From Octopus vulgaris (Eukaryota): a stretch of DNA of 64,000 nucleotides. The stretch lies in NCBI GenBank assembly GCA_951406725.2, contig OX597829.1, positions 44,578,001 to 44,642,000 of the forward strand, in the 5' to 3' direction. The notes beneath the pieces were generated by a model that was given only the letters and a program-made list of their open reading frames with translations, had not been told where the DNA came from and made no database searches. Position numbers and translations under genes: made by a program. Below, one piece after another: positions 50,743-51,550 of the stretch. The first letter of the stretch is position 1. Each line of letters starts with the position of its first letter.

Positions 50743-51550
50743 TAATTCAATAAAAATGGTAAATAATTTTCCTGTGGTTTTTCATGTAACCAACAATTAT
50801 TTACCGGAAAATTTCGGTATGTAAATACGACAAATTAATTGTCAGGACCTTTGTAAGGTTCAGTATATAGTAAAGAAAAAATAAGAAGGTTAGCAGCAGG
50901 CTGTTTCACCTCATACCGAAGGAATTAGAAATGGCAGTCAAAGACCGTTTTTCCAATTTCTATAAGTGGAGAATCCAAAAACGAAGGCACTTACGGCTCA
51001 CATACACAAAACCGGAGTGGCAAATATACGAAGTCAGTCACTTACCGTTAATAGCGAACATATGTTTCTGGATCGCAAACATAGAAATCAGTTTGAATTC
51101 CGTCATCGGCGCTATATTCGATAGCTTTACTAAATGCCACTAGCCCTCACTTCTGACCCAGCGACATCAGATAGTGGGGGGAAGAGTGCAGATGTTAAAA
51201 CTAAGTGGCGACTGGGAACGTAAATTTTCCCTCCAAAATTCTGCCATGCGCGCTTTCTGGGTAATCGTAATGGAATGAGGAATCCACATGGTAATTCAAT
51301 AAAAATGGTAAATAATTTTCCTGTGGTTTTTCATGTAACCAACAATTATTTACTGGAAAGTTTCGGTATGTAAATACGACAAATTAATTGTCAGGACCTT
51401 TGTAAGGTTCAGTATATAGTAAAGAAAAATAAGAAGGTTAGCAGCAGGCTGTTTCACCTCATACCGAAGGAATTAGAAATGGCAGTCAAAGACCGTTTTT
51501 CCAATTTCTATAAGTGGAGAATCCCAAAACGAAGGCCCTTACGGCTCACA
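50743..51550 (-). mobile_element. Non-coding element with about 260-bp direct terminal repeats (549-bp period) and a central hammerhead, inserted in (TA)n
   Basis: 50743-51004 is nearly identical to 51292-51552; (TA)n on both flanks; hammerhead at 51051-51115 on the minus strand. Confidence 0.82.
51051..51115 (-). ncRNA. Type I hammerhead ribozyme, U4C core variant
   Basis: Minus strand ATAGCG-CCGATGA-C-GGAATTCAAAC-TGATTTCTAT-GTTTGCGATCC-A-GAAA-CATATG-TT-CGCTAT: perfect 6-bp helix I, extended helix II, palindromic helix III, GUU site. Confidence 0.72.

Follow-up and report, generated by a model that had tools for sequence, protein, structure and literature searches.

The question raised by this locus is what an insert of about 808 nt, made of 1.5 repeat units with one ribozyme, is doing between two TA repeats, and which machinery put it there. 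The window analysed here is a 64-kb stretch of Octopus vulgaris DNA. An earlier note made from its letters had proposed a retrozyme-like element. The reading favoured here, with a probability of roughly 60%, is that the insert is a 1.5-unit copy of a non-coding hammerhead family, likely a retrozyme, which was inserted in TA repeats by a Penelope-like enzyme, probably from a circular RNA. The parts of the element are listed below, with the RNA sense taken from the hammerhead and the fixed 3' ends.

50680..50742, no strand: left-hand (TA)n, where the element's fixed end meets its insertion target
50743..51291, minus strand: full 549-bp unit, with unit position 1 at 50743
51292..51549, minus strand: partial second unit, positions 1 to about 258, the 5'-truncated end of the insertion
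50743..50745, minus strand: site A, the distal fixed 3' end, at unit positions 1-8 across copies and the window copy's own end
50864..50869, second copy 51413-51418, minus strand: site B, the proximal fixed 3' end, an internal TATATA matching the target, at unit positions 122-127
50743..50863, second copy 51292-51412, minus strand: "tail" of about 120 nt between sites B and A, with three predicted hairpins common to the sister family
51043..51123, minus strand: type I hammerhead with outer and inner helix I, U4C core, helix II and palindromic helix III
51119-51123 with 51043-51047, minus strand: outer helix I, beyond what the earlier note described
51110-51115 with 51051-51056, minus strand: inner helix I
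51103-51109, minus strand: hammerhead core CCGAUGA (U4C), with GAAA
51070-51101, minus strand: helix II, 11 positions, with a C-A mismatch at its base
51058-51065, minus strand: palindromic helix III, ACAUAUGU
51057 and 51056, minus strand: GUU site, with the predicted cut between these two positions
51550..51716, no strand: right (TA)n tract

The earlier note's outline of the element holds. Its near-identical direct repeats of about 260 bp are found at 50743-51001 and 51292-51549, 549 bp apart, and the overlapping stretches of about 259 bp differ by 4 substitutions and 1 indel; the (TA)n tracts it saw on both sides are there as well. The repeats are overlaps of the unit and not LTRs around an internal part. 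The element was also called non-coding, and on a tandem of the unit the longest stop-to-stop frames are 89 codons on the plus strand (70 from ATG) and 66 on the minus strand, the 89-codon frame being disrupted between subfamilies by indels in loop II. The GC content of the unit is 39%. Three further tandem arrays lie elsewhere in the window, at 5521-6107, 46688-47060 and 49341-49724, with periods of 215, 186 and 106/126 bp respectively, and the first two have a common interspersed repeat. Rfam miRNA matches near the element were set aside as microsatellite artefacts.

The minus-strand type I hammerhead with a palindromic helix III is also upheld, and it is larger than first described, with an outer helix I and a longer helix II. 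A descriptor of the hammerhead fold finds this one site only in the 64-kb window, against a background of 2 hits in 100 dinucleotide resamples of the window and 0 in 3000 of the 808-bp element. The site is absent from the Rfam report of the window at E<=1, and the hammerhead fold of the monomer has an energy of -13.3 kcal/mol versus -16.2 kcal/mol for the minimum-energy fold, with a z of about 0.

Comparison between copies was more informative. Ten representatives spanning the subfamilies were aligned to the structure drawn from the window copy, and 95.2% of the 230 cells in the hammerhead helices are paired. Nine of the 23 pairs change on both sides, a level that none of 500 shuffles reaches (related sequences can beat shuffles), while slid controls give 29-39%. 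Covariation, which the earlier note had proposed as a check for helices I and II, is present in the hammerhead. Helix I is recast in a group at 76-83% identity and again in the sister family, and the C3-G8 pair varies to U-G and U-A. Helix III occurs in six variants, all of which are palindromic and self-pair as dimers at -4.6 to -10.3 kcal/mol. Whether U4C is the consensus, a second check, has a divided answer: it marks the young subfamily of the window throughout and a group at 88-91% identity, and the other subfamilies have U4. An unpaired C-A or A-A stands at the base of helix II in all representatives. U4C is described as a known natural variant with low activity in vitro (PMC3088659), and eight of nine Xenopus retrozyme dimers are reported to show no cleavage in vitro (bioRxiv 10.64898/2026.07.22.740005). 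Judged from sequence comparison, the type I hammerhead motif of the family is genuine and conserved, and self-cleavage is predicted.

One subfamily, at about 80% identity, has a U3-A8 core; its motif has 40 exact matches, including a 7-unit array (L061, L097; e.g. C18:83923698-83927008), and it is also present in contigs of two sequencing runs. Other type I hammerhead families exist in the genome (L162-L191), where 8 of 59 matches lie above the Rfam cut-off, and they are unrelated to the sister unit described below. In the search for a partner, Rfam RF00163 matched these other families across the genome, and none of them matches the sister unit.

The unit is not peculiar to this locus. It is dispersed in the 2.8-Gb genome, with 90 matches from the 40 places scored among 1286 candidates, and one 24-mer of the unit has 541 exact matches genome-wide where a control has 0, so the copy number that the earlier note wanted established is high. 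The first 91 of the 24-mer matches listed correspond to 61 insertions, which would put the total at about 360 insertions or more. Subfamilies range from 76% to 100% identity. The multimers the note had asked about also exist, as head-to-tail arrays of up to about 4.6 units and another of 7 units with nothing between adjacent copies; most insertions hold fewer than 2 units. Next to one copy lay a 72% match through which a sister family was recognised; its unit is 616 bp long and 65-72% identical to the 549-bp unit, and one tail motif common to both families has 1225 matches. The best sister copies are 99-100% identical. The sister family (L192-L222; e.g. C4:46546266-46551749, C1:120155384-120163475) is very young and has a CUGAAGA core and a long AT-rich loop II.

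The ends of the copies were used to ask how the family inserts. The sample consists of the 61 consecutive insertions behind the 91 listed matches, that is, all those listed on C1 and C2 and the first 12 on C3, with 6 more C3 matches left out; copies enter it only if they contain unit positions 175-198, and very short ones thus escape. In the sense of the hammerhead, 30 of the 34 direct copies have their 3' end at one of two places, 22 at site B and 8 at site A, with 4 elsewhere. The 27 inverted copies comprise 17 whose two ends are A and B, 1 with B at both, none with A at both and 9 with one end elsewhere. Of those that can be classified, 17 of 18 are therefore A+B (p=7e-5 versus an even split). 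When 20 doubtful loci were read by eye, 3 inverted and 4 direct copies became A+B, and the B+B case proved to be a deletion. Minor 3' ends fall at further TA-like spots, near positions 76, 219 and 260. Site B lies 193 nt past the predicted cut site and site A about 120 nt beyond it, and the sister family has both 3' sites at homologous places, about 190 and 310 nt past its own cut site. The 5' ends, on the other hand, are scattered from unit position 38 to 549.

These ends change one part of the original proposal. It had expected copies to start at variable, circularly permuted positions, and random permutation is ruled out by the fixed 3' ends A and B, with variation confined to the 5' ends. 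The pattern seen instead is the "tail" of Penelope-like elements (PMC8557442; PMC3846280), in which two internal start sites of reverse transcription bound an optional tail (PMC11167929). The proposed targeting of TA repeats is supported by copies that end in (TA)n, and mobilisation of the Penelope type by the two fixed 3' ends, the paired inversions and the match to a coding Neptune element of the same genome.

The same ends bear on the idea that the family is a DNA-level repeat, spread by recombination or by extrachromosomal DNA circles, with the hammerhead incidental. In its favour, blocks were duplicated after insertion in one long sister array, and two loci on C13 share flanks. Polarised ends with two fixed 3' sites and scattered 5' ends, paired A+B inversions, the Neptune match and the covariation of the hammerhead all speak against it, and with the end statistics contradicting most of it this reading is largely refuted and has very little probability left. 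The long sister array, of 13 units, is a mosaic in which blocks recur; long arrays can therefore lengthen once inserted and are no proof of rolling copying. The two C13 loci (L023 and L026, at 265-302 kb) hold multi-unit copies with identical flanks in opposite orientation and are probably a segmental duplication.

The coding element is a young Penelope-like family (L122-L161; e.g. C1:37064356-37067800) with many near-identical copies, a 3' UTR of about 1 kb and a 775-codon frame with an RT motif, a CxxC linker and a GIY-YIG domain; it is assigned to the Neptune type because of the linker, as described in PMC8557442. Upstream of the frame there is apparent further coding sequence. Its copies end in (TA)n, either at TATATA or 30-36 nt beyond, and all 6 inverted copies in which both ends can be seen have one of each. 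The young Neptune element thus follows the same two-end rule as the 549-bp family, with a tail of 30-36 nt versus about 120 nt.

A coding partner physically joined to the unit was searched for in the same genome. Among the loci examined, with flanks of 1.5 kb for most and 3.5 kb for 40, no unit is joined to a Penelope-like ORF. A tblastn search with two Penelope-like queries over 221 loci finds Penelope-like sequence in 7 unit-bearing loci, never continuous with the unit, and the fragments beside L061/62, L095, L096, L102, L112, L116 and L216 were dismissed as partners since they are separate insertions. The flanks of 87 insertions have only common interspersed repeats in common. No sequence is shared between the unit and the one young Neptune family or the neighbouring Penelope-like fragments, and no autonomous partner was found among these sequences. 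Three loci with a variant of the tail motif were also tried as partners and turned out to be non-coding fragments of another 549-bp subfamily. The search scored a minority of 22898 candidate places and covered one Neptune-like family in full; several Neptune-like families share the (TA)n target, and none was shown to have sequence in common with the unit. No hammerhead was seen in 10 long loci of the young Neptune by a regular expression of a style that also missed the known site in the window. An old Neptune-like fragment has, on visual inspection, a minimal hammerhead-like motif in its 3' UTR (L095:4560-4620).

These results weigh on the alternative that the earlier note itself had offered, a partial tandem Penelope pLTR, in which the units would be pLTRs, the remains of a coding Penelope-like element whose copies were 5'-truncated. 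A tail, inversions, 5' truncation and TA targeting are features of such pLTRs (PMC8557442; PMC3846280), and the loci inspected are part of the family. The head-to-tail units with nothing between them, the tblastn result and the unremarkable flanks lend it no support, and it is now improbable as an account of these copies. The unit may nevertheless descend from an ancient pLTR.

It remains to ask what RNA served as template. The predicted cut site is read through in 41 of 61 insertions, an arm is longer than one unit in 21 of 61, and the 5' ends of direct copies do not gather at the cut (1 of 34 within 2 nt, 4 within 8). A cleaved linear monomer was rejected as template on the read-through and the missing pile-up, and the three observations together leave as template either a circle or a multimer that was not cleaved. 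Within any one insertion the units and inverted arms agree in their diagnostic alleles, apart from a few single-site exceptions, while the insertions carry many haplotypes; this fits copying round one monomer and fits homogeneous donors too. The haplotype of the window copy is also found in a copy on C2. Distances within an insertion are not clearly below those to the nearest other insertion, and the shared private variants used to test for a circle number 11 tandem and 22 inverted, small figures that include redundant pairs. No signature of A-to-I editing is seen among private substitutions (A>G 8 versus U>C 18; 8 versus 7). Two of four public runs each give one 579-nt contig, with GUC and C4, that closes on itself after 549 nt; this is a hint, as the run type is guessed, there is no silent control, the removal of bubbles leaves whichever path is in the majority, and an identical cycle would come from tandem DNA or RNA.

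The favoured reading can be put as a series of steps. Multi-unit copies would be transcribed and two hammerheads would pair via the palindromic helix III, with slow cutting freeing a monomer of 549 nt, which is then likely closed into a circle by ligation. A Penelope-like protein with RT and GIY-YIG domains would then nick (TA)n, as suggested by Frangieh 2024 and by the ends seen here, and reverse transcription would start inside the RNA, at site B, whose TATATA matches the target, or at site A. Copies cross the ribozyme site, often for more than one unit, and stop at scattered 5' positions; inverted copies pair an A end with a B end and have one haplotype in both arms. Such inversions may arise when the two target strands are primed at two sites on one RNA or RNP. 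The window copy would be a start at site A and a run of about 808 nt. Against this explanation stand the search for an autonomous partner, which found none sharing sequence, a tail that is 3-4 times the published 30-40 bp and does not match the one young Neptune examined, and a core that is off consensus (U4C and the mismatch at the base of helix II). The in vitro results on U4C, the Xenopus dimers and the anole element, the mosaic array and the distance comparison also count against it.

The closest competitor keeps the Penelope-like mobilisation but takes as template a linear multimer that is left uncleaved after transcription of a homogeneous array in the genome, making the family a non-autonomous Penelope-like element like MRC1 of Chlamydomonas; the hammerhead would only trim transcripts and a circle would be unnecessary. 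It accounts equally well for the fixed ends, the reading through of the cut site, the haplotypes in common and the closed cycles in the assemblies, and arrays with 4 to 13 units could have served as donors. For the anole element, cleavage by the ribozyme is reported to be dispensable for insertion in vitro and unprocessed RNA to be the dominant substrate (PMC11167929). A separate homogeneous donor array would be needed for each of the many haplotypes found in homogeneous multi-unit insertions, however, and the hammerhead has been kept by covariation across families only 65-80% identical. Circles are described as accumulating from known animal retrozymes (PMC7229834). The linear multimer is a serious alternative, though a less likely one than the favoured reading.

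The verdict on the 549-bp family is that it is probably an animal non-LTR retrozyme and moves in the manner of a non-autonomous Penelope-like element, with cleavage and circularity predicted. Like the animal non-LTR retrozymes of PMC7229834 and bioRxiv 10.64898/2026.07.22.740005, as described there, it is built of non-coding units in tandem, each bearing a single type I hammerhead, has GC below 45-50%, lacks a long terminal repeat, has a weak palindromic helix III suiting dimers and is proposed to be mobilised in a Penelope-like way; the features found in the octopus copies are a type I hammerhead per unit, head-to-tail copies (at least dimers), no coding capacity and GC below 50%. Its length of 549 bp falls within the 51-972 bp given by Li, Clavereau and Pollet 2026 (bioRxiv 10.64898/2026.07.22.740005), whereas the examples tested by Cervera and de la Pena 2020 (PMC7229834) are shorter, at 220-390 nt, and its core is a variant. 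Two fixed 3' ends with paired inversions were not seen in the text consulted of these two papers. Octopus has 0 matches in the main text of the first, and the second is described as sampling vertebrates, insects and a coral.

Likeness to the EN+ Penelope-like elements, namely Poseidon PAc of Anolis (PMC11167929), Neptune and Naiad (PMC8557442) and Adineta Penelope (PMC3846280), as these are described, comprises two internal start sites 3' of the hammerhead, an optional tail that is placed at a single end when a copy is inverted, as well as 5' truncation, partial tandems and AT-rich or (TA)n targets. The octopus family shows the marks of a non-autonomous member, with two fixed 3' ends bounding an optional tail, a one-end tail in inverted copies and 5' truncation; an ORF with RT and GIY-YIG joined to the repeat, as in an autonomous member, is not seen in the loci examined. 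It differs in having no ORF, in its tail of about 120 nt versus 30-40, and in a full-size hammerhead with long helices I and II where theirs is minimal. Its site B matches the target over 6 nt, while PAc is reported to start without homology (PMC11167929). Non-autonomous Chlamys elements such as MRC1 (PMC8557442), as characterised there, are likewise non-coding, form head-to-tail multicopy insertions and use a Penelope-like enzyme. They resemble an autonomous family at the 3' end and belong to a clade without canonical hammerheads, whereas the octopus unit has a conserved hammerhead and its partner was not found.

A more specific proposal, tentative but conceivable, is that the family is an RNA-circle family with its own conserved docking module, the 120-nt tail with three hairpins. 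A borrowed Penelope-like enzyme would prime both target strands at two set sites, and the hammerhead would be kept slow, by U4C, U3-A8 or U3-G8 in separate lineages and by the helix II base mismatch in all, so that circles survive for copying. Only 4 of the 28 tail pairs change on both sides, and folding z-scores, at -2.5 for the whole unit and -0.25 and -1.9 for the tail, are weak. If this proposal is true, the insertions would be proof that animal retrozymes are clients of Penelope enzymes, with the length of the tail set by the RNA.

The retrozyme class and its link to Penelope are already in print, while the literature searched yielded neither the insertion footprint nor the 120-nt tail. 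It contained no description of the 549-bp family, nor of retrozymes with a tail footprint; a consensus may already be filed in Repbase, in Dfam or in supplements. The main text of a 2026 paper on Octopus vulgaris repeats does not contain the word "ribozyme" (PMC13282606). A 2020 review states that animal retrozyme repeats show no motif pointing to a partner (PMC7761336), and a 2026 preprint is described as arguing for Penelope-like elements from co-occurrence and pLTR similarity (bioRxiv 10.64898/2026.07.22.740005). In the octopus genome the copies themselves carry the Penelope footprint, which speaks to the question of which enzyme moves animal retrozymes. Since two young families with insertions in the hundreds show this footprint, and the genome also has a coding element that looks active, a direct test is possible. 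Conservation of the 120-nt tail together with its hairpins would also be informative on what determines the two start sites.
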